Position numbers and translations under genes: made by a program
The notes under the pieces: generated by a model
What the model saw: only the letters and a program-made list of their open reading frames with translations
The model's database searches: none
Told to the model about the DNA's origin: nothing
Part shown: piece after piece, positions 5,866 to 53,925 of the stretch
Layout: each line of letters opens with the position of its first letter
Position numbering within the stretch: position 1 is the first letter of the stretch
Origin: Peribolospora baueri
Taxonomy: Eukaryota
Assembly: GCA_029717555.1 (NCBI GenBank)
Contig: JAMDHS010000034.1
Location: forward strand, 1 to 64,000
Length of the DNA: 64,000 nt
Reading direction: 5' to 3'

Positions 5866-6443
5866 CTCCAAACGTTGGCCTACGTCAATCAGACGAGGAA
5901 CTCAACTTTAACCTACGGGAAAGGCAGCCCTCAGCATTCCCGCCTCATTGGACACTCTGACTCAGATAGTACGACCGGATACTGCGTCTATCACCTCGGA
6001 GACCTGATCAGCTGGCGCAGTCGAACCCAAAAGTGTATTTGTATTGCCCAGTCGACAGCTGAAGCCGAGTACGTCGCTGCTTCCGCCGTTAAGGAGGCAG
6101 CCTACCTCAAATCCCTCCTCCGTGAATTGGGATCGGATACACGACCTATCATCCAGTCCGACAATCAAGCCGCAATCCGAGCCGCGGAAGACCGCAGAAT
6201 CACCAAAAGTTCAAGCACGTCGATATCAAATACCACTACATTCCGACGGACGGTGAGGAAACGGCACATCCCCGCGAGATCCGAACGGGTAACAACACCG
6301 CTGACGTCCTCACCAAGATCCCGACAAAGGAAATGCCCTTCCGAGCACGCCGCAACTTCAGGGTCCAAGACCACAGATCCGTTGTCGTCACCAACCATCT
6401 GGGCAAACCGAAGTTAGACGGTCAAGATGAAACATCGCCTTGA
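5866..6443 (+). mobile_element. Ty1/copia retrotransposon remnant (end of RT plus RNase H), degenerate
   Basis: LAYVNQTRNSTLTYG..LIGHSDSD..STTGY...ISWRSRTQ..IAQSTAEAEYVAAS...SDNQAAI, then a frameshifted KHVDIKYHY. These are hallmark copia RNase H motifs with small deletions. Confidence 0.9.
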
Positions 6444-6451
6444 GGGGGGAG

Positions 6452-6737
6452 AGCTAGAGAACATAGACACTGAGTGCTCCGAAGGAGAGTTGTCATGTGA
6501 CCTGTCACGTGAGGAGGGCTTTTGTACCTAGACCAACGCGAGATTCACTGGTTCCCGAGTAGATAGAAACCACGACATCATTCCCACCCCGTCTAACTCG
6601 CTTCCATCACGACTACAGCTCGCAAGACTCTACTGAAGCGCTCCACTTTTCGAGAGGCTCTCTCAACGACCGCTGAAGCCGAACGAGGACGGTATGAGAG
6701 CGCTGGCCAATTCGGAACAGTCGACGTGGTTCCAACA
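6452..6737 (+). mobile_element. Probable 3' LTR of the copia remnant
   Basis: Follows a polypurine tract gagggggggag-like run (6442-6451) and ends in ...TTCCAACA. The expected 5' TG is apparently mutated to AG, and there is no second LTR copy in the window to confirm it. Confidence 0.45.
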
Positions 6738-13706: not shown

Positions 13707-16700
13707 TTGCTGTTGCGCATGTTGGGCAGCGTTGGGTGTTCCAGGCTGGGGCATGGCAGGTGACCCCGGCGGAACCGCCGGGCGACTTTGCGCTGGCAAG
13801 ACGACAATAGATGGACGAGGCGTTTGAACAGGCTAGATGGATTCCAAAAAAAAAAAAAAAAAAAAGTCAGTCCTCTTTCAAGACCACGAGCAGGGACGGT
13901 ATGAGCTCACAGTGATACCAGGCTTCGCTTGATGAGCAGGTTGCTGTCCCTGCTGAGCCTGCTGGGCCTGAGCCTGAGCGGCCTGTTGCGCAGCCTGCGC
14001 AGCCTGCGCCGCCTGCTGCTGCTGATAAAATGCGGCAGCCGCCCGCTGCTCCTGAAACGCCCTCTGCAACTGCATATCGCGCTCAAACTTCATCGTACTT
14101 AACGCCTGAGGCGTAGGCGCTGGGCCGACCTTGAATTGACCGTGCGTCTCGTGAGGTTGTAAGTTGACTTTCTTGTTCGTATTGGCTACTAGGCGCGAGT
14201 CAGCCAGTGGTTAACGTGGGGATGCGACGGTTGTCTCTCTGTAACACGCTCTTCCAAGTAACACGCCCCTGGGACCAAGGCTAAACGGTAACCAAAACTT
14301 ACCAGGCTTGGCGGCCGCCGCCTCCCTCCTCCTCGCGTTCTTCCTGATCACCTCGTACAAGCTCATCCTCCTCCACTTCTTCCTGCTCCCGTCAAACTTG
14401 GCACCCAACCCGAATTTCTTCGCCAGCTTGTCCTTCTTGGCAGCCAGAGAGCCATTCAGCACGCCTTGCGCAGGACTGTCTGACCTGCCAGCGCTTCCGG
14501 CGGCTGCTGACGCCCCCGTCGATTGCGGGTTAGTTCCTTGAGGCTGCTGACCGGTGGCGACGGCATTCGCTTGTTGGGTCTGGGCCTGTCCCGTACTGGA
14601 CGAGCTCGACCGGGCGGCAGCGGCGGCGGCCTGAGCCTGCTGTTGCTGCTGGCTCGGGCCCTTGGGGTTCCATCGACGGTTCCAGCGGTCGTAGCAGTCC
14701 CAAGCGATCCGCCGATCGGTAGGTGCGGTGAGTAGGGACGAGTTAAAAATGTCGGCGATGAGAGGCCAGTAGCCGTTGTACTGCTTGACAAGCTGAAGCA
14801 ACAGATTGTCGTCCTCGGCCGTCCAGACGAAGGCTGCCGAGCGCGCTTCAGCATTCGGTGGTTCAGATGGCGGGCCAGGCTCTGGCTTCTGTGGATCCTT
14901 GTTCTTTCTGCCAGTGAATAGCACTGAAGGAGGGAAAGGGCCGAGAAAAAGAGTCAGCGTCGGGAGGGCCCTCCCACCGCCAGATTACGACAAGATAGGA
15001 TCAATCGCTCACATGACGCAGGCCGGGGGGTTGTCTCTTCACCGGCGCCGACAGCATCGTCGGGCCACCAGCCACCCTCCTCGATCCATCCTTCCTTTGT
15101 CCTCTTCCGCCCAGGTTGTAACGTTGACACCAGCACGGGCTTGCTGTCTAGCAACCTCGTGACGTGCACAAGCCGCCCGGCGTTCAGCGAGCTCTCGTCG
15201 ATGCGTTTGTCGACTTTGGACGGGTCCGAGGGGAGCGACGGTTCCGAGTAGAGCGGCAGCTCAGGGAAAAGAGAGGAAAGCGTGAGAGACGAGGCCGACA
15301 GATTACGTAGAGGAACAGAGATGGACGGGTCGTCAAGCAGCGGCAACAAGGCTGGGTTACCCTGACTTTCGCAGGACGGGTGCTCGTTCGTCGAAGGTGG
15401 CAATAAGGCCGTCGCATCGAAAGTGGTCGCGCCTGGGTCGGCCCGCAAAAGCGGTGCGCGCACGGCAGTAATGACGTCGACTGGAAGCTCGCCCACCAGG
15501 GTCGCATCGCCGTCTGCGTGCTGATGTAGACTGCCCTGGATGAAGCTCCCGGGCTCCACCGAGCTTTCCTCCTGCTCCTCCGTCTGTGCTCTCTTCCCCT
15601 TGTCGCTACCGAGGAAAAATTCTGGCTCACGGGAGCTTCCCGTCGCCGTCGTCTCGGTGTCCAGGTCACGACGTCGCCGCTCACGTATTACCTCCATGCC
15701 GTCAGGCCCGTGGTGCTCTCGTCGAGCAGCCTCATTCTGCGAGGCCAACCGCGCAAGCGAGGCAGACTCGAGAGCTGCAGCTGGATCCTCTTCCGCGTCG
15801 GCGTCGGCGTCGGCATCTGCATCCGCATCCGCATCGACCTCAGCGTCGGCATCAGCGTCTACGTCTGTATCCATCTCCATATCACCTTGACCAAGTCCGT
15901 CCGACGTCTGTCCAGCGGATGGAGGAGCAACAACGGCAGGCGAAGCGAACCTCGAAGCCTCAAGGCTACCTTCCGCATCGGCGTCGCATTCCGCGTCCAC
16001 GTCCGCTTCAACGTCCATGGTCACCCCGTCCTGGTCTTCCATCTTGACGTCCACCTCGGAATCCTCTCCGTCCCGCTCAACCCATCCGGGCAGTCGCCCG
16101 TCCTCGGTGCGCCTGACGCACAGAGCTGCCCGGGCTGTCGCGTCCGGAGCAGCATGCCAAGCGATGACCGCTCGAGAAAGATGAAACGCCGCGGCGATCT
16201 TCCAGCGGCGCTCTTCACGAAAATCGGTCTGGAGCCACTTCTGTAAACATTAACAGGAAACGGTTAAAGGAAAGAGGATGCAATCGATAGAACACGTTGA
16301 GAGAATGAAAACTCTGGGTTAAGCTTGTTTACCGTAACACGGACGTCAAGGTCACCGACGAAGGGAAGCGCGGGAACGCACCATCTCGTCGAGCAAGTGA
16401 TCCCAGTGAGCTTTGGTGACAACCGGACCCTTCTGCTTCTTTGGCTGGCGGAAACTCCAGACACCCTCGGCTTTGAGGTCCTCTATGCGGTCCATTGCCT
16501 TGCGAAAGCGGAGCTCCGAGAAGGCGAGCTGGACAGAGGGTGAGACGCAAAAATAAAGAGCGAGTTGAATCGTGGAGAGACGCAAGAAATGAGGTCAGTA
16601 CGATGGCACTCCTGAATAACTCGCCCACAGCGCTGTTATGAAGGGACTAGGCTCCTCACCTTCCATTCCTTCGTCCCCAAACATCGGTCCGCCTTACTGA

Positions 16701-18022
16701 CCAACTTGCTAGCAGGACTTGCCCTCGCTCTCACCCACCACCTCCAAAGCTCGCCGGGTACGGCGGCTTGAATGCCAGCAGCGCCCACACTGGACCCGCC
16801 GGGAGCGCCGAGTTTGCCAAGCTGTTGACCTTGGGCGCCTTGTTGTAGTTGCGTCTGCGCCTGCGCCTGCTGCTGGTGCTTGTGCGGTCTCACGCCTCTT
16901 GCGCCTCCTCCACTTCCTGGCCCGCCCAGCTTCCTGGCTGCCGACATGGACGGGGGTAAAGGTCGGAGCGAAGACGCATACGTCGTGGAAAGAGGGTCGT
17001 TGGCGAGGAGTTTGAGGGAAGGCGGCAAAGGCGGCTGTGGCCTTTTCGGGTGGAGAACAGAGGATGGCGGGAGGGGCGTGGGAGGGTAGGAAAGCGGTGC
17101 GAAGCGAGAAGCGGTGGGCAGGACGGGAGGTCGTTTAACTGGTGATGTCGCCGGCCGTTTGAGTTGCTTGGACGGCGAGGCCAGAGGGCGAGTTGGAGAT
17201 GCTGAAGTCGTCGCCCCTTCTTTCCCATCCTTCGCCTCCTGAGCACCTTCACCTTTGCCCTTTTCCTGCGCACTTCCGTCTTTTCCCTTTTCCTGCGCAC
17301 TTTCACCTTTACCCTCTTCCTGCGGAGCTTTTCCGTGCTCACCGTCTCCGTCGCCTGCCTCCTTCTGCTTAACATCCCCATCTCCGTCGTCTCCTTCCGT
17401 CTTGTCAACCCCTCCCGTACTTTCCTTCTCTCCTTCGCCTTCGACTGGCTCCCCGTTCCCTCCATCTTTGTCCATGGTGAAGAGTAATCGAGAGAGCGGG
17501 AACTCTGAGATGCTCTTGCCGGTACGCAAGTCATACTCTTCCGCCAGTTTCTTCACTTCGGACGCATCCTCTGCGGCGAGCGCGTCGTCAGGAAGCACCG
17601 TTCCCAACGAAGAGGCGTAATCGATGAGGTAGGCGAGCGAGCGGAGGTGATTGTGACGCCGGGCGACGAGAGTCCTAAAGGCCGATCGCGGGCGGGAGAG
17701 GATGCGTGGGTAAACGGTTGATAACAAGAAATGGCTCACACATTCTCCCCCTTTTCCCTCACCCCTTCACCAGGAGAGGAGCCATACAAGCCATCCATTC
17801 GAATGGCAAGTTCTGATACTCCTGAAAGGGAGCGAGCGCCTTGCGCTTCGACTCGTCAACTCACCGGACTTGCTCCCTCCTCTTCTCGACCTCTCGCTCT
17901 CTCAGCTCGTCCAATTCTCCTCCCGGCCTCTTGGCGGCTTTTGATGTCAAGGGCGAGGTTGAGGAGGAGGCGGCAGCTGTGGAGGACAAGGAGGGCGGAA
18001 CCGGGGGTTCAATGGAGGGCAT
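12831..18022 (-). CDS. EAF1: Eaf1/Vid21 NuA4 histone acetyltransferase scaffold subunit, multi-exon
   Basis: HSA domain WSFRQPKKQKGP..KAHWDHLLDEM|KWLQTDFREERRWKIAAAF; SANT/Myb domain WTAEDDNLLLQLVKQY..WPLIAD...AWDCYDRW; polyQ C-terminus; stop TAG at 12833-12831. The first-exon start is less certain. Confidence 0.92.
12950..13715 (-). repeat. (CAG/CAA)n polyglutamine tracts in EAF1 3' exons
   Basis: Multiple (ctg/ttg)n runs on the + strand. Confidence 0.9.
17236..17335 (-). repeat. 27-bp (9-aa) tandem repeat in EAF1, about 3.5 copies
   Basis: GKAPQEEGKGESAQEKGKDGSAQEKGKGEGAQE. Confidence 0.75.
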
Positions 18023-18339
18023 GGCGGGCGTGTAGGGAGAAGGAAGAGGGGGGAAGGGGGGTAGTGGGTTGTGGAGGCCGGTCGTCGGGGAATAGAAAGA
18101 GATTGGAGAGGCGATCGTCCGCTGCGGCGTCTCGTTCGCGTCCACTCGCTCTCGCTCTCTCCGGGAGGAGCAGAAGGTGGCCGAGACGGTTTTCCCTCAA
18201 CACGCCATCATTTTTTCACGTCAGGTCGCCATCTTTCCACAAAAATTACACAACCGTATGAGAAAAATTCGGGACTTTCTGATTATTCAAAGAAATTAGG
18301 AAAGTATGGGAAATGGTCCTTAGGAATAGGAGGATTCCG

Positions 18340-18790
18340 CGCCTACACGCGCGTGGTGCGGGAGTCGCGGCCATCGCGCTCAGCGGTTTTGGTGCCGGAC
18401 ACCGGAGACCTACGACTCAAGATTCTCCAATCAAGGCACGACGCCAAGCTCTCGGGCCACCCGAGCCAGCGATGCACGTATTCGCTCGTAGCCCGAACCT
18501 ATTGGATGAAGAGATACGTCCAGGAGCATGCGCGCGCCAAGTCTACACGGCATAAACCTTGGGGCCTGCTGAAACCGTTGGAGGTCCCCGAGCTGCTCTG
18601 GACATCGATATCGATGGACCGCATCACGCAGTTGCCGGTCAGCCAAGGGTTCACTTCCATCCTCGTCATCGTCGATTGACTCACGAAATTCGCCATCTTC
18701 GAGCCAACACGCTCACCCAAGACCAACTCGCGGAGATCTTCCTGCGACGTGTGGTGGCTCAGCATGGAGCGGACATCTTGTCGGACCGCG
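18340..18790 (+). mobile_element. Ty3/gypsy integrase fragment (degenerate HHCC zinc-finger region and start of catalytic core)
   Basis: [80 protein letters not shown], with internal deletions and a stop. Confidence 0.92.
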
Positions 18791-18795
18791 GCCGG

Positions 18796-20171
18796 GGAGC
18801 TCAAACTCGCCTGGGGCAGCTCCAATACTCTTCATCAAGAAGAAGGACCGAGGACTTCGTCTCTGCGTAGATTACAGGGCGCTCGACCGCATCACAGCCA
18901 AGGACCGATACCCGATCCCACTCATCAGCGAGCTCCTCAACTGACTTCGGCAATCCCGCGTCTTCACGAAGATCGATCTCCAGTCAGCCTACCGCCTTCT
19001 CCGGATTAGGGAGGGTGACGAGTGGAAGACGGCGTTTAAGATGAAGTACGGCGGCTACGGCTACCTGGTCATGCCTTTCGGCCTCTGCAACGCGCCAGCG
19101 GTCGTTTCAGCGACTCATGAACGACCCCTTTCGCGACATCATAGACACTTTTCTCATCATCTACTTAGACGACCTCCTGATCTACTCCGCCAGTCACGAA
19201 GAGCACGATGACCATGTTCGCCGTGTTCTGCAACGCCTCAAGGATGTTGACCTGTACGTTAGTCCGAAGAAGGGCCGATTCAACCAGCCGAGCGTGGAGT
19301 TCCTCGGCTACATCGTCTCAGAGTCCGGAATCTCGATGGATCAGAGCAAAGTTCCTTGTCGTGGATCTCGTAGTTCTGCTCGTCTGGATTCATCTTGCGG
19401 CTGTAGTACGCGATGGGATGGAGCAAGCCGGTGTCCTTATCCCGCTGGCTCGCGACACCCGCGATGGTCTGGTCTGACGCGTCAACCTCGAGCACGACCG
19501 GTAGCGACGGGTCGAAGTGCTTGAGAATCGGCGCGGACGTTCGCTCTATCCCATCGCGTACTACAGCCGCAAGATGAATCCAGACGAGCAGAACTACAAG
19601 ATCCACGACAAGGAACTTTGCTCTGATCCATCGAGATTCCGGACTCTGAGACGATGTAGCCGAGGAACTCCACGCTCGGCTGGTTGAATCGGCCCTTCTT
19701 CGGACTAACGTACAGGTCAACATCCTTGAGGCGTTGCAGAACACGGCGAACATGGTCATCGTGCTCTTCGTGACTGGCGGAGTAGATCAGGAGGTCGTCT
19801 AAGTAGATGATGAGAAAAGTGTCTATGATGTCGCGAAAGGGGTCGTTCATGAGTCGCTGAAACGACCGCTGGCGCGTTGCAGAGGCCGAAAGGCATGACC
19901 AGGTAGCCGTAGCCGCCGTACTTCATCTTAAACGCCGTCTTCCACTCGTCACCCTCCCTAATCCGGAGAAGGCGGTAGGCTGACTGGAGATCGATCTTCG
20001 TGAAGACGCGGGATTGCCGAAGTCAGTTGAGGAGCTCGCTGATGAGTGGGATCGGGTATCGGTCCTTGGCTGTGATGCGGTCGAGCGCCCTGTAATCTAC
20101 GCAGAGACGAAGTCCTCGGTCCTTCTTCTTGATGAAGAGTACTAGAGCTGCTCCAGGCGAGTTTGAGCTCC
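18796..20171. repeat. Long inverted repeat: 629-bp arms (18796-19424 and 19543-20171), 118-bp spacer, made of gypsy RT plus RNase H
   Basis: Base-by-base comparison gives 624/629 identity, no indels and 5 transitions. Both arms encode YLDDLLIYS and share the same stop codon and frameshift. Confidence 0.97.
19349..19540 (-). mobile_element. Gypsy RNase H fragment forming the spacer and inner arm
   Basis: [60 protein letters not shown]. Confidence 0.93.
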
Positions 20172-20781
20172 GAATGAAGCCCTTCGCGAGCATCTCATCC
20201 AAGTACTTTTTCAACGTCTGACGTTCTTTCTCAGAGAGCGAATAGATCGGGTGATTCGGTATCGTGCTCCCTGGAACCAGCTCGATCGCATGATCGGAGC
20301 TTCGGTGAGGCGGTAGCGGACTCGTTTTCGCCTTCGAGAAGACGCTTACGAACTCGTGATGCTTGGACGGGATGAGGGCGCGAATCTCATCCTCGTCATT
20401 CAAGGCGCGTCCTCTGAATCTCTCGAGCTTGGACGTGTACCGTAGGGCTTGGATGAGCTTGAGCTCTGCCCGCTTCTCCCGTTCGAGCCGTGAGCCGGGA
20501 CGGCATCTCGTCGGTCGCGCTGGACCTCTATCGCCCGGACCTGGCTGGCGAGCGTGGGGATGCTGGTCAATGACGACTCCATTAACTCGGTCTTCATTTA
20601 CGCCGTCGAAGCTTTCTTTAGACGTGTAAGACTGGGTGGAGGCATCGCTCTTCGTCGGCCACACTCTTGCAGCGGTCTGAACGTGAGCATCGCCAGCGAG
20701 GCCGGCGCATCCTTTGTATCGCGTCGAAGTCGTCTTTTTTCTCACCGGCTGAGTGCTCTTGGATGGACATGAGGACCCTAC
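19614..20781 (-). pseudogene. Gypsy gag remnant plus RT (pol pseudogene)
   Basis: IPSKHHEFVSVFSK...[77 protein letters not shown] followed by [30 protein letters not shown]. Confidence 0.92.
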
Positions 20782-21068
20782 TGTCACAGACGACCCGCGG
20801 GTGACGCCGACGCTCGTCGCTTGCAACAGCCAGAACCAGCTGGATTTCAAAACGTCACTGCTGGAAACCTCTCTATCGGAATGAATGCACAAATGGGCGG
20901 CCAGCCTCGCCGTACGAGGGAGATAGTAGGAGCGCCAGCCAATCTACCAATCTCCGAGACAAGTAAAGAAGGGCAGGAAAGGAAGAGAGTTTGACACGAA
21001 GAAGGCAGAACGGAAGGGAAGGCACGGAGCTGGCCACCGTGTCCTACCAATGAGGTGACGGGACAACA
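20782..21068 (-). mobile_element. Putative 5' LTR of the gypsy element
   Basis: On the - strand it begins TGTTGT and ends TGTGACA (TG..CA, TGT/ACA termini) and sits immediately upstream of the gag/pol remnant. No second copy is available to confirm it. Confidence 0.4.
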
Positions 21069-21588
21069 ACTGAACTGAGTCCTACAATGGTCGAGGTGGG
21101 GTAAAGCGAGAGCAGAAAAGCACCGATCGCGGATGGCAAGTCTTAGAGCAAATAATCATTCAGAGGAGAAGCAAGGAAAGAAGAAAGGGAGAAGCGCGAA
21201 CGACGAAGGCCACGTATAAGCAGCACCGTCGGGGCAAAGTGATATATGGGTGTTCTTCCGAATTTGAGGCATAGGCAGAAGAATAGGAGAAGAGAGAGAA
21301 GGAGGGGGCACTCAATAGGCGAACGAGCCAGAGCAATACGAGACGGTTCCAGGTTTTGGGATCCTGTCGAGAGGGCAAGGGAATACGATGAGGAAGCCTG
21401 CGAGAAGAAAAGGAAAGGACGTAAGAACTCGAAAACGGAAGGCAACTCCGCGACGGAGACAGGACGCCGTTTGTCACAGCCTGCCTCCTCTGATGTCCCC
21501 TCCCCTCGACAACCTCCACTCCCGCCGCCTTTGTCGTTGAACGAGGCGGCGTCGGCGGCCGGCGTTTTTCCAAATCCAAGACTGGGTC

Positions 21589-21658
21589 CTAGTCCGAGTA
21601 CGATCCAAAATCCGATTGTCCGCCGTCATCGCCATCATCATCATCATCGTCATCGTCG

Positions 21659-21691
<33 letters not shown>

Positions 21692-23151
21692 TCTTCCTCC
21701 TCCTCCTCGCCATCCTCCCTACCCCGAACCCGCCTTCCCTTCGGCAGTCCCATTCCATTCGTATTTGCCTTGTTATATACTTCCCTCCTTGACCCTGGTC
21801 CAGTCTCGCCATCACCGTCCTCATCATCAGCCACCTCCTGCCCCTTGTTCTCATCATCGTCTCCGACAAGGTCTCTCCTCCTGTCGCTCTGCATCGTACG
21901 CAAAGCTTCTGAATTCAGGAAAGAGCCTGTGGAGCTTCTTCGAGAAGCACTGGGGGCCTGGCAAGCGGAGACAGCGTGAGCGTCGGAGGCGGCGTCCGCG
22001 ACGGGAGATCTTCGACCCTTTGGTGTCGCTTCTCCGTCCTCCCTGTGTTCCGGTGAAGGAAGAGCGCGACCCCCGCCATCTGCCGGCGCGGTAGAGGAGT
22101 CCTCGACGTGCTGAGCCGTCTTCCCGTTTTTGTCCTCCGCCTTCTCCGCCGCGCTTTCAGCGGCCCCTCCCTTCTTGTCCTTGCGAGCCGACCCCGTGCC
22201 CCGTTTCGTCGCCCTCCCCCACAACCTCTTCGCCCCCTTCTTGACTAACTCGCCGACATCGATCACGTCGTCCGGCCTTTGGCCCCCCGAATACCAAGGG
22301 GCAGGCACGCCGGCGTACCCGTACGCGTACCCGTACGACTGGTTAAAGCCCGCATACCTTGTCGCATTCTGCCCTCCGCCAGGAGGGACGGAGCTACCTT
22401 GGGAGGCGAGTAGGTGCGCACGGGCTGCGACGCCGATGGTGATCGAGTTTGCGCGGTGTCGTCGTCCCGACGTGGGCAGTGGGGCGAAGGTGATGCGGGT
22501 CGAGGAGCCAGAAGTAGAGGGCGCGCGCGATGAGGCCGTAGAGGACATGCTGATCGTTGACGTTCTGCTGCGCTGCTCTGACATGTCTGCTGAGGCAGCG
22601 TCGCCGACGGCCTCGCCGCTGGCATCGTCGCGGTTACCGACAAGCGTTTTCGTCGCCTCCCTTTCGTCTCCCTCCTCATCCTCTGAATCGGCGATCGCGT
22701 GCTCGTTATCTGCCTCCTCGTCCACCTCGGGCGTAGGTGGCACGAGCGGAACGCCATCGCCCATGCCGACGAGCCCGAAGCCGCTGAGTCGCTGGGGCAT
22801 CTTGTCGAGCACCCTCCCGCCCTCGGTCGGAGGCGGGACGCCCTTCTTGCGTCGGAACGATCGGCCCAGCTCGCCCCAGTCTTCCACGTCCTCTGCTTTC
22901 CCCGGAGTGGCGGTGGCGGAATTGCCAGAGATGCCGCCACCGTTCGTGCCCACGCTGGACTGGGACGGTGTCTCTCCAGGAGGAGAAAGGGAGGAGGATC
23001 CCGGGCTGGAGCCATTGCCACCGGAGACCCGACGCTGATTGTTGATGAGGATGCCGCCGGAGCAAGAGGGGGATGGGTGGAAGGCAGGGTTGGGAGGTTG
23101 GAGCCGGCTCGTGGTCGTGTCAAGTTTGGCGGGCTTGTTGAGAGGAGGCAT
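21589..23151 (-). CDS. Hypothetical low-complexity protein with acidic poly-D/E tail
   Basis: Uninterrupted ORF (open from 23211; first ATG 23151). Contains an ordered-looking island RITFAPLP..RRHRANSITIGVAARAHLL and a (GAC/GAT)n tail at about 21625-21710. Confidence 0.75.
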
Positions 23152-24612
23152 GGCAGACGGTGCGTCGATCGTCCGGAATGCAGAGGGAGACGGCTCCGGT
23201 GGTGAAGACAAGGCGAGGCCTCGGTGTCGGTCTAGTCTACCCTGTCCAGGGTCGCGTGTAGAAGGAGGGCAAGGACCAAAGCGACAAGGGAGATGGAAGT
23301 AGTACAGATCCGAACGCTGTCACGAGACCCAGCGATGGCCCTCTCCCTCGTCTTGTCTTCGCTTGCACCAAACGGAGATGTTGCGGCGTTAGGTGGGATG
23401 CTGTGAGGGTATGAATGCTGGGCGCAAGGACAAGAGGGGGGAGAAGGACGTCGGAGTGGCTGGGGAAAAAGCAGAAAAGAGGCGAATAAAGATGAGAAGA
23501 GGAGCAACGGAGCATCGGCTCGATGGTGGTGGTCGAAACGACGAATGACGGCAACGTCGACGGCATTTTTTTGGGCCGGCCCGTCTGGAGACCCCACAAT
23601 TGGGGTCGCACAGATTACCAGAGTTGAATTGAAATCTTTACACCCCGCGCCAATCCCATTTCAAATCTTTCCGATCGCTGCCGTACCCCGCTCGTGCACC
23701 TATCCGGAAGGAACCTGGTGCGAGGATGGAGGACGTGTACATCTGAACTGGCAAGAGCAAGGACAGAAATGAGAACGAAAGGACAGAGGAACCTCACCCT
23801 CGATAGATAAAAGGCAGTGGCTCTCTTACCCGAACAAGGACGCTCAACATATGGACGTCTGGCTTGCTCGTCACGAATGGCCGATCCCTCGAGAAAGCTT
23901 TGCTGAACGTCATTCTCTGCTGGCGAGACATTGCTGGAGTCGGCCAGCACGGTCATCTCGGGCGCTTGCCCTGCTGCATGCGGTGCTGGACGAGATGCGA
24001 GGAGACAAAGCGTGGTCGACTAACTAGTGCTTTGAGTGGCGTTCGGAGTGAAGGGAAGGGACAGACGACGGATTCGCAGGCTATGGGCGACGATCCCCAA
24101 GCCGGAAGAGAGGTGCCGCTTTGGGCGGCTAGCGAGGTAAAGATTGGTTTCTGAAAGGGCACTCGTTAATGCGCTTGCGTTTATGAGGTACGACGTCTCT
24201 TAGTCTGCTCGAGTATCCACTAAGTAGTACCTGCCCACCGCCCGCGCCCCACCCCCATCTCTTCCGACCGCAGTAATAAGCAGCTTGGGCTACGGACGCC
24301 AGGCTTCGACGGGTTAGATTGGCTTGGAAGCGATGCCACAACATATGGAAACAGCTACTTGAGTACATGATCGATGTGAGATTCGGTTGATGGTCGGTAA
24401 ATAATGGCCAGACAGAGGCGGTGTGAAAGCAGGAGCGCTAGAATGGGAGCCCGGTGCAAGACCGAACAACGTGTGCATCCAAGGGTTGCTGCTATAGCTG
24501 ATGTCGGACCCTTCGGTACGGTAGAAGCGATGACAGCCGGTAGGGTACATAGCAACGCCTCCAACTGTTGGCGATCGGCACAAGACCGCGCCGACCGCGC
24601 CAATTCATCTGC

Positions 24613-51500: not shown

Positions 51501-53262
51501 TCTGCATCTGCTTTCCCTCTGCCAGATGTTTCCCCTATGCCGGCTTCTTCCCCTGCGCCAGCTGCTTCCCTTGCCTTCGTTTCTACCGCCCAGTCTACAG
51601 TCAGCTTGGGTACCCCATCCATGACGCATCCACCTGACGCGCCGAAGATCACCATCGAGCGGCCTGCGACATCGACCGCCGGCGTGGAGAGCCTCGAGAC
51701 GCCATCTGCCGCTGAGACTTTGTCGATCACGACACCACCGGCAGCACGGAAGGGACTGTTGGCTAAGGCGCTTAAAGCCTTTGAGGAGACAGCCATGACG
51801 ACATCTGTCGATGCAGTGGCGGACGAGAGGGACAGGCGTGCCGCAATGTGGCCGTCCTTCAATGTGTGGAGGAATAAGGCTGCAGCTGCGAAACGGAAGA
51901 GGCAGGTGGAGGAGTTGATGGGGGATGTTCGGCCGCTAGGGAGCAAAGGGTTTAAGAGGAAAGGGAGCCCGGTGGCAGAGGAAAGCGAGAGGGGAAGCCC
52001 TGCAGGAGGAAAGAAGAGGAGGCAGGTGGAGGAGCCGATGAAGGCTTTTCAGCCTGTGGCGAGCAGAGCGTTCAAGAGGAAAGGGAGCCCAGTTTTGGAG
52101 CAGAATGAAGAGGGCAGACGGGCGGGAGCAAAGAAGAGGAAGTCAGTGGAGATGTTTGTGGATGAAAAGGTGGCTCTTGATTTGGCGAAGGTGCGTAGCG
52201 TGCGATCCGCCTGGCGTGCCTCCACAAGGATGTTCCGCTTATCCTCGTTGTTTGTGTTTCTGCACACCCTAGACCGAACGAAAGCACAGCAGTCTCTTCT
52301 CACGTGGCACCTACCTCCGCGCTCTGCGGTCTCGCGTCGACTCCATCTTTTCGCGCCCCTCGTCTTCCCAAATGGGAGGTCGACCAACGTTCGTTGTGGC
52401 GTTGTCCGTTTGCCACCCTGGAGCGCCCCACACGTGGTTGAAAAGAAAGTTGGCGGATGATGTGGCGTCGGACCAACCCAATGTACGAATGGCGCAACAG
52501 GGGAGGGTGGATTTGCAAGTTAAGGATGTGAAGAAAGCTGCAGATATCCAGGTGAGCTCCAAGAGAACGAGCCTTGTCATCATCAAGGGAGTGCTCTGAC
52601 TGTCTGGTGAACACTTTCTTTCTCACCTTGCATGCTTCTACGTCTATGTTTCAGCTCTACCCCGATGTCGGCCTCGTCATCTTCGAACTGTCTCCACAAT
52701 TGTCGAAGTGCACTGAGGCGGCAGAGAGGTAAGTAAAAAGGCTGATGTAATGTTCGTCGCTCATGATCACTCGGCGCCGGGCGTTCCAGGCTGAGAATAT
52801 CTTATCCCGGCTCTCCTTGCGCCCGGATTTGTTGACTGCAGAACGCGGCTCTGGGAGGAAGAGAGGGAACGAGTCAAGGGACTCGCCGATGCTATCATTG
52901 GCATGCCGTCGCGGACGTACGACACGTCCATTCTCGTTGTCTTTTGGCCCGCAGAAGACCCTTGCCTAGAAGCGGATCTCAACCCCGCCTCGGTCAAGGT
53001 CCAGCTAGGCCTTGCACCGCCTCCGCGTTCGGCGATGACACCAGGAAGTCGGCGCTCGTCCGCTTCCTCGGACGAGTTCATCTCGACGCCCTTTGTTCGC
53101 TCCGTGGCGATGCGAGTGGAGGCGGAGGGGAGGGACTTTGACTTTGACCGTCCATTCCAGCGAAGCATCGTGACGCTCTTGGACAGAGTCCGTCTCTCCG
53201 CTTGCGATCCGACCGCCGCCGTCAGCCGTACGAGGCCGTTTGTTGAGGGATGGGTCGTGTAG
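45527..53262 (+). CDS. SAC3: Sac3/GANP-family TREX-2 scaffold protein with very long N-terminal extension, multi-exon
   Basis: FKGLCEDMCPEFERE...AVTAYHRPAA..QPLPTDVRTPKALKRTVDYL...HPFIRDRARQVRQEF..Q...YERMARW, NEPEFRAYHLL, VPYLMACLAE. Orthology versus a divergent paralogue is not established, and the 3' exon boundaries are approximate. Confidence 0.85.
50960..51360 (+). repeat. About 6 imperfect 22-24-aa repeats (SAPxxxxAPAxFASLxSAPKPSxLQ) in SAC3
   Basis: Recurrent gccttcgccagtctcg..tcggcacca.agcctt units. Confidence 0.85.
51890..52160 (+). repeat. 120-bp (40-aa) basic tandem repeat in SAC3, about 2.3 copies
   Basis: KRKRQVEE..FKRKGSPV..E.G..AG.KKRRQVEE..FKRKGSPV..E.G..AG.KKRKSVE. Confidence 0.85.
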
Positions 53263-53925
53263 TCTGTTTTGTGCCCCCCGTAGTCTTTTGTCATGTACGT
53301 CTTGGATCGGAATCCGACCTCTACATGTGCGTCGCCACGAACCCCTCACCCACCTGGTCAGATAGGCGTTGGAAATCGAACTTTTTGCGTCCAAGAAACG
53401 GCTAAAATGCTCCCCCCCCGCTCGCAATGAATGGCAGGCCGGCCGAACTCGGGGGAAGTCGGTCCCCTCCTCCTCCGCCTCCACTCCACTGGCATCGCCA
53501 CGGCGCGAAGAATGGGCGTCTGCCATGAGGCTCGTGCCGAGGAGAGCGGAGCAGCTAGCTGGGTCCGCTCCCCCAAAAAAAAAGTCGAAAAAGTTCTCTC
53601 TCTGCGTTGACGGCCGACAGAGGAGGCGAGCTCGGCAAAGCGTAAAACGTTCGGAGATCTATTTCGCGTGCGGAAATGAATGACGGGAGCAGCGTGCCGA
53701 TCTGAACGCGAACGTGGGTTGGGGGAGAGAATATGCATGGATGCGGTGCGGGGAGTTGAAGGGACAAGAGGAGAGGAGGGGAGGGGAGGGGAGGGGAGGG
53801 ACGGGTGAAGATCGTCCATTTATCTATCTGACTGTGTGCATATCGTGGACGACCGCGCGCCGCTAAGACCTCGATCGGGGAGGGAGGAAACGAAACGTAA
53901 ATGTAAAAGACACACGGTTGTGGAT

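Follow-up and report, generated by a model that had tools for sequence, protein, structure and literature searches.

The window analysed here, a stretch of 64,000 nt of DNA, contains a long palindrome made of dead gypsy reverse transcriptase (RT) sequence, and the question this raises is whether the structure is there to silence transposons or is what DNA repair left behind. The initial annotation favoured the former, proposing a 'killer' locus directed against an active gypsy family. The analysis below indicates instead that the palindrome is probably a fold-back DNA-repair scar in a dead, chromovirus-related Ty3/gypsy relic, and that the scar is possibly used as a source of small RNAs.

The inverted repeat has the dimensions first reported for it: two arms (18796-19424 and 19543-20171) of 629 nt each, identical at 624 of 629 positions and separated by a 118-nt spacer. 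No comparable inverted repeat was found elsewhere in the window, where the next-best arms measured 49 nt, and 20 shuffled 10-kb stretches rendered none. When the folding of a transcript crossing the palindrome was computed, a single 629-bp duplex was predicted (-1431.8 kcal/mol, a value given with no shuffled sequences of that length), in agreement with the earlier expectation that such a transcript would fold into a long double-stranded RNA. No Rfam match at the gathering threshold was obtained between 17500 and 22000, and no tRNA gene was found within the window. A second, decayed inverted repeat is present at 53059-53550 (arms of ~86 bp, 81% alike, with a 330-bp spacer). The features of the palindrome and its surroundings are as follows:

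14954-18022, minus strand: Eaf1/Vid21-like host gene (Pfam HSA, E = 6.4e-06; translation)
18386-18795, plus strand: integrase fragment, from the zinc-binding region to the start of the core (tblastn to P0010 residues 629-778; DNA matches to the C655 and C110 copies)
18796-19424, plus strand: left arm, 629 bp; RT on the plus strand (18796-19354) joined to an RNase H piece coded on the minus strand (19350-19424)
18942-18944, plus strand: in-frame stop within RT, with its right-arm counterpart at 20023-20025
19100-19103, plus strand: frame change in RT (tblastn frame switch), mirrored near 19865-19867
19350-19354, unstranded: 5-bp microhomology at the junction between the RT end and the inverted RNase H, mirrored at 19613-19617; overlap of the matches to the C110, C656 and C652 copies
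19425-19542, minus strand: 118-bp spacer, corresponding to the beginning of RNase H (Pfam RT_RNaseH_2, E = 6.5e-21 on 19349-19549)
19543-20171, minus strand: right arm, 629 bp; RNase H piece on the plus strand (19543-19617) and RT, including YLDD, on the minus strand (19613-20171; Pfam RVT_1, E = 3e-15 on 19611-19862)
20172-20414, minus strand: unduplicated start of the RT region (C110 copy match up to 20414; P0010 residues from 71 on)
20415-20872, unstranded: relic-adjacent stretch of unassigned origin (single open frame with the RT start; common to sister organism B)
21589-23154, minus strand: neighbouring host gene of unassigned function (homologs named from Melanopsichium and Violaceomyces, 2 named of 9 matches)

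The relic contains a Ty3/gypsy-type RT with its YxDD motif, as well as RNase H and integrase sequences (Pfam RVT_1, RT_RNaseH_2). Its RT and integrase pieces are 45-62% identical to P0010, a full-length pol with rve and Chromo domains, and since many full-length relatives of the RT carry an integrase and a chromodomain, the relic is regarded as chromovirus-related. No long direct repeat of the paired-LTR kind was found around it, and no match to gag, protease or a chromodomain in 18000-21600; given also its scrambled domain order, it is a relic and not an element. The arms had been described as covering RT through YLDD plus part of RNase H. Both parts are indeed there, but they do not form a colinear piece: the RNase H part lies on the strand opposite to RT, and the region that connects the two (~residues 333-398 of P0010) is missing from the arms. 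The spacer runs on naturally from the RNase H piece of the left arm, as does the RT-region start (20172-20414) from the right arm, and the integrase fragment, which carries internal deletions and a stop, is joined directly to the left arm. The relic thus has three new junctions: integrase to RT, RT to inverted RNase H, and RNase H start to inverted RNase H (19542/19543). The 5-bp microhomology is clear only at the second of these, the other two having no clear one, and this RT-end/inverted RNase H junction was seen at no other matched locus in the genome. The stretch at 20415-20872 rendered no match to the fetched loci (nor did 20415-21600 as a whole) and no convincing match to the proteins of relatives.

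Before any function or origin is considered, the possibility that the structure is an assembly or amplification fold-back artefact has to be weighed. The stretch is contained in four public runs from one study, X1 and X2 from organism A, and X3 and X4 from organism B. Flank depth was flat in X1 (85-95) and X2 (105-120). An arm contig of 328 bp from X1 (19023-19350) showed 0 differences and a depth of 162.6, 1.8 times that of the flank, and one of 339 bp from X2 (19617-19955), also with 0 differences, had a depth of 237.5, 2.1 times that of the flank; a 247-bp contig crosses the integrase-to-left-arm junction at ~1x in both runs. Arms at about twice the flank depth, together with a junction contig at 1x, indicate that the reads contain two near-identical copies of the arm, and make a random amplification chimera unlikely. 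The five arm substitutions, with derived states on both sides, likewise speak against an artefact. In its favour, the whole palindrome is spanned by none of the listed contigs, which leaves the orientation of the spacer relative to the flanks unfixed by the reads, and X1 and X2 come from a single study and may be the source of the assembly. On balance, an artefact is extremely improbable.

The proposal of a 'killer' locus likened the palindrome to Mu killer (Muk) of maize, a true equivalent of which would use its hairpin to silence an active, autonomous gypsy family in trans and in a heritable manner. Like the present locus, Muk is a natural, rearranged, non-coding transposon derivative that forms a long inverted repeat. 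Its transcript is described in 10.1101/2020.01.09.900282 as identical to part of the active MuDR, terminal repeat included, and as yielding 21-22-nt RNAs that silence in trans. The present locus, in contrast, derives from an LTR retrotransposon, its arms cover internal coding DNA and not an LTR or promoter, and its transcript is putative. The search for intact family members matching the arms, which had been recommended as a check, was run in one assembly, a fragmented one of 668 contigs, and found none: the 29 DNA matches were all fragments except for the locus itself, the 21 RT-protein matches contained no intact member, and the 50 pol-protein matches (43 of 123 candidates scored) contained no intact pol, the longest having five stops. 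C110, the nearest copy, has 86% identity and is itself broken by many deletions and frame changes; the relic differs from it by 56 substitutions in 662 aligned columns (8.5%). Every family copy examined was deletion-riddled or scrambled. There was no sign of a collapsed high-copy family at a likeness of at least 85%, no listed organism A contig over the region exceeding ~2.6x. Only 57 of the 609 arm 21-mers match C110 exactly, as opposed to the identity reported for Muk and its target, and 69/609 match any of 15 other retroelement loci exactly; when up to one mismatch is allowed, the number with a match to another locus is 210/609. For a dense patch of differences at 19800-19850, none of 13 loci was a better donor than C110.

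Within this one assembly, then, the locus apparently lacks what characterises Muk, an active and nearly identical autonomous target. It does have a long, near-perfect duplex over RT in a genome with the core of an RNAi machinery (see below), and young elements could hide among 668 contigs. Even so, the broken state of the family, the absence of high-depth contigs among those listed, the low number of exact 21-mers and the internal coding nature of the arms together render a true Muk equivalent very unlikely.

Two further observations concern the family copies. In C110 (L025:5848-7020), gag is immediately preceded, on its own strand, by an integrase fragment that is 94% identical to the window's integrase piece, compared to 86% for RT. 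The copies C655 and C483 (L027 and L028) contain nearly the same internal deletion junction, window position 20309 being joined to ~19778, which suggests that a deleted derivative may itself have been copied.

How, then, could the palindrome have been formed? According to the fold-back repair model, a 3' end inside RNase H would first have folded back over ~385 nt and paired with the RT end through the 5-bp microhomology; RT would then have been recopied backwards, after which a switch to the integrase piece would have taken place. In a second step, one arm would later have been recopied from the other, by arm-to-arm conversion or break repair. Through this recopying the second arm would have gained the junction together with 75 bp of RNase H, the connection region would have been lost and the loop reduced to 118 bp; the middle of the arms would have become identical again, with older differences surviving at the ends. 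The order of these steps is a model. The product would have persisted because relic DNA in the genome tolerates rearrangement, and any transcription from the neighbourhood that crossed the palindrome would probably provide the resident Dicer with a substrate, as a by-product with no live target.

The distribution of the mismatches between the arms bears on the second step. There are five (18815/20152, 18823/20144, 18825/20142, 19369/19598 and 19420/19547), all of them transitions, and they are confined to the outer 30 bp (3 differing sites, 10%) and the inner 57 bp, leaving the central 543 bp perfect. If mismatches were placed uniformly, a perfect run of at least 543 would have P = 2.5e-4 (simulation), and the position of all five near the arm ends therefore suggests later arm-to-arm copying. 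Comparison with other copies assigned 2 of the derived states to the left arm and 3 to the right arm. As reported earlier, both arms have the same in-frame stop (18942-18944 on the plus strand, 20023-20025 on the minus strand) and the same frame change in RT (a tblastn frame switch near 19102, mirrored near 19866); these may be older than the duplication, or may have been spread by arm-to-arm recopying. Arms of >99% identity attributed to conversion are also known from sex-chromosome palindromes (PMC8981503), which are, however, large and gene-bearing, while the present arms are 629 bp of a dead element whose conversion is deduced from the mismatch pattern only.

Precedents for the first step come from yeast, in which stems of only 4 bp are reported to suffice for priming fold-backs, and large fold-back loops to form in MRE11/SAE2-proficient cells (PMC7467729). 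The fold-back inversions of Saccharomyces cerevisiae resemble the palindrome in their short-stem priming, possible large loop and secondary template switch (PMC7467729; PMC10622511). They differ in being selected, chromosome-scale events found mostly in repair mutants, whereas the palindrome is a local, fixed event of 0.6 kb in which the arms apparently grew into the loop during a second round. Fold-backs might also arise where Ku or Sae2 has been lost, but both have matches in the genome, and this cause was ruled out.

An alternative origin would start from two independent family copies lying tail-to-tail. A microhomology-mediated deletion would have fused the RT end of the first with RNase H sequence of the second, and the arms would then have become identical by gene conversion. 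The 10% difference in the outer 30 bp is close to the 8.5% divergence between the relic and C110, as this would predict, and an integrase piece precedes gag-pol in the same orientation in C110, which resembles the left side of the relic. Such an origin, however, requires two insertions at one spot plus two deletions, and the smaller, short-loop fold-backs found elsewhere are better explained by fold-back copying, which covers the palindrome too; it must be considered quite unlikely. The fold-back repair model has a difficulty of its own in that the two new outer junctions show no clear microhomology.

Fold-backs are in fact frequent in the retroelement relics of this genome. Inverted repeats with arms of at least 30 bp were found at 7/15 retroelement loci compared to 2/40 evenly spaced stretches (Fisher p = 8e-4), a contrast favoured by the choice of controls, which came from 9 large contigs, had no gypsy-like match, and are probably gene-dense and not matched neutral DNA. 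The 15 loci were ten-kb stretches picked by homology to the element; one is LINE-like and one has no protein-level match, and none was dropped. Nine of ten repeats lie within 312 bp of element-like sequence. Those in or beside retroelement relics are:

L061:3841-5142 (C21), RT and RNase H pieces on the plus strand facing RT-RNase H on the minus strand: second gypsy family, 53% amino-acid identity in RT
L067:4022-4398 (C636): inverted repeat, arms of 154 bp, 98%
L030:2099-2985 (C13): inverted repeat in or beside a retroelement relic
L026:4141-4308 and 6316-6478 (C656): inverted repeats in or beside a retroelement relic
L032:4103-4377 (C27): inverted repeat in or beside a retroelement relic
L028:6603-6995 (C483): inverted repeat in or beside a retroelement relic
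L066:4878-5014 (C44): inverted repeat in or beside a retroelement relic

The C21 locus has an RT/RNase H fold-back layout like that of the palindrome, its 119-bp arms being 95% identical and accompanied by a nested palindrome; in the remaining six loci the arms are 40-197 bp long, with identities of up to 100%. An inverted repeat with perfect arms of 62 bp around a 93-bp near-palindrome was also observed in C88 (L117:515-774), which has no gypsy similarity. Since similar fold-backs are frequent in the genome's retroelement relics, a single locus of this kind needs no special function to exist. The repair scar is thus supported by the junction map, the microhomology, the end-clustered mismatches, the fold-back enrichment, the broken family copies and the C21 layout. 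As a scar the palindrome is ordinary, yet it is a clear example of repeated fold-back and recopying in the relics of a genome. A search of the literature at the level of listings, with subscription papers mostly outside it, found no report on palindromic retroelement relics in Ustilaginomycotina.

The same enrichment would, however, be expected if hairpin sources had been selected, which argues against a mere scar. The palindrome might accordingly be a selected source of hairpin siRNAs of the type present in Naumovozyma castellii, in which relic palindromes are the main supply of double-stranded RNA to Dicer and Argonaute with no RNA-dependent RNA polymerase (RdRP); it would be transcribed from a neighbouring promoter, be kept matched by arm-to-arm conversion, and act as a memory against re-invasion by the family. 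Many N. castellii palindromes were reportedly found to be built from Ty fragments (Drinnenberg et al., in 2009). The two fungi are alike in having Dicer and Argonaute, retroelements seen as fragments only, long inverted repeats able to give hairpin RNA, and no detected RdRP, this last being weak in the present case (10.1101/2019.12.12.873604; PMC13709905). For N. castellii, the former source gives palindromic loci as the origin of 74.1% of siRNA reads, with RdRP absent, and the latter mentions no known active retrotransposon despite many Ty fragments. They differ in that the present host is a basidiomycete whose Dicer is multi-domain, and in that its hairpin siRNAs are putative. This host is probably one of the smut fungi and their allies, judging by the Melanopsichium and Violaceomyces proteins that were the two named best matches of the neighbouring gene.

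The RNAi genes were examined by reading gene models exon by exon from the genome sequence, and two of the three genes recommended for checking at the outset, those for Argonaute and Dicer, were present. There is one Argonaute (C175), with its N, L1, PAZ, L2, Mid and Piwi exons in order, and one Dicer (C110), with a dimerisation domain, two RNase III domains and a dsRBD. The Dicer helicase motifs and RNase III acidic motifs, and the catalytic-type motifs of Argonaute, were read by eye. Both genes look intact. No RdRP was matched by PF05183 or PF25358, a weak negative since both controls were silent (0/14 prokaryotic genomes); a motif scan rendered 10 matches, and the 9 viewed in frame were not RdRP-like by eye, although a motif interrupted by an intron could escape such a scan. 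A search for C5 DNA methylase, with a control that was positive in 9/14 genomes, found none. RIP-like or methylation-type decay was also considered as a driver and set aside: transitions make up 41/56 of the substitutions between the relic and C110, and 18/41 of these fall at CpG, compared to 34% of C/G letters being in CpG, which is no clear signal. Among related fungi, Ustilago hordei has RNAi and U. maydis has lost it according to a review (PMC7763443), and an early survey predicted no RNAi in the Ustilaginomycotina it included (PMC4290597).

Transcription of the locus is putative, and two candidate sources can be proposed from the arrangement of the neighbouring genes. The gene at 21589-23154 points at the palindrome, with its stop 1.4 kb from the outer arm edge, and read-through from it might cross the arms; when 20415-21600 was scanned for six words resembling poly(A) or TATA signals, one match was returned. 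The gene at 14954-18022, which we take to be Eaf1/Vid21-like from its HSA domain plus a SANT-like layout, points away, with its promoter region ~0.5 kb from the left arm, and divergent transcription might start from this promoter, near 18200.

The presence of Dicer and Argonaute with the expected domains and catalytic-type motifs, the lack of detected RdRP and C5 DNA methylase, the enrichment of fold-backs at retroelement loci, the N. castellii precedent, a duplication that may be common to organism B, and the 210/609 arm 21-mers within one mismatch of another locus are all consistent with a selected siRNA source. The retention of Dicer and Argonaute when no intact gypsy pol was found also argues against a mere scar. 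In opposition stand the putative status of the transcription and of the palindrome in B, the weakness of the RdRP negative (silent Pfam controls, possible intron), and the broken state of all family copies examined, which makes any benefit only prospective. This reading is possible, if on the unlikely side. More speculatively, and rather improbably, a smut-related lineage might have lost RdRP and C5 DNA methylation and kept a Dicer and Argonaute fed by relic palindromes of several families; the locus would then be old, common to B and conversion-matched in each lineage, forming a self-maintaining small-RNA memory with no live family copy. If this were true, a basidiomycete would have arrived independently at a counterpart of the N. 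castellii system, and concerted evolution would be what maintains its palindromes. If the hairpins were transcribed and diced, they would offer many natural, datable loci with which to examine how RNAi is first primed against a transposon in the absence of RdRP, and would pose the question of whether palindromes of this kind are under selection or just tolerated.

How old the palindrome is and how it has been maintained can be tested from existing DNA data, since public runs of the sister organisms are available. The relic lies at the same place in B, where 20196-20295, 20407-20753 and the right flank are linked by a single 10-kb contig. The summed depth of six arm bins was 4.59 and 4.75 copy-equivalents in B, compared to 4.74 and 4.67 in A, and this equality indicates that the duplication may predate the A-B split. 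A B-only signal with two 2-bp deletions absent from A was seen at 1.8-2.0x depth; together with the arm depth, this signal would fit a palindrome kept across the split, a further point against a mere scar. The arm end segments differ at 5/87 sites, of the same order as the A-B divergence adjoining the relic (14/347); divergence in other flanks was 1.4-2.3%. Other observations speak against the presence of both arms in B. At several arm positions, all the B contigs shown lack the A letter. One B contig runs on as natural integrase past 18768, not joined to an arm, and another has the natural RT-to-RNase H connection; the contigs of the arm region are not assignable to loci, and the extra B copies of this region could lie elsewhere in the genome. 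The loose end at 18768 had no exact match in 121 loci. That at 20232, integrase-like by eye, had no genome match within 3 mismatches and none better than 10 mismatches in the fetched loci; it had brought to mind a longer left arm in B, a reading with which the length of this loose end conflicts and which was dropped. Beside the relic, B has its own small inversion cluster at ~20752-20872 and, further right, a 38-base insertion at 21475, which represent more local rearrangement since the A-B split.
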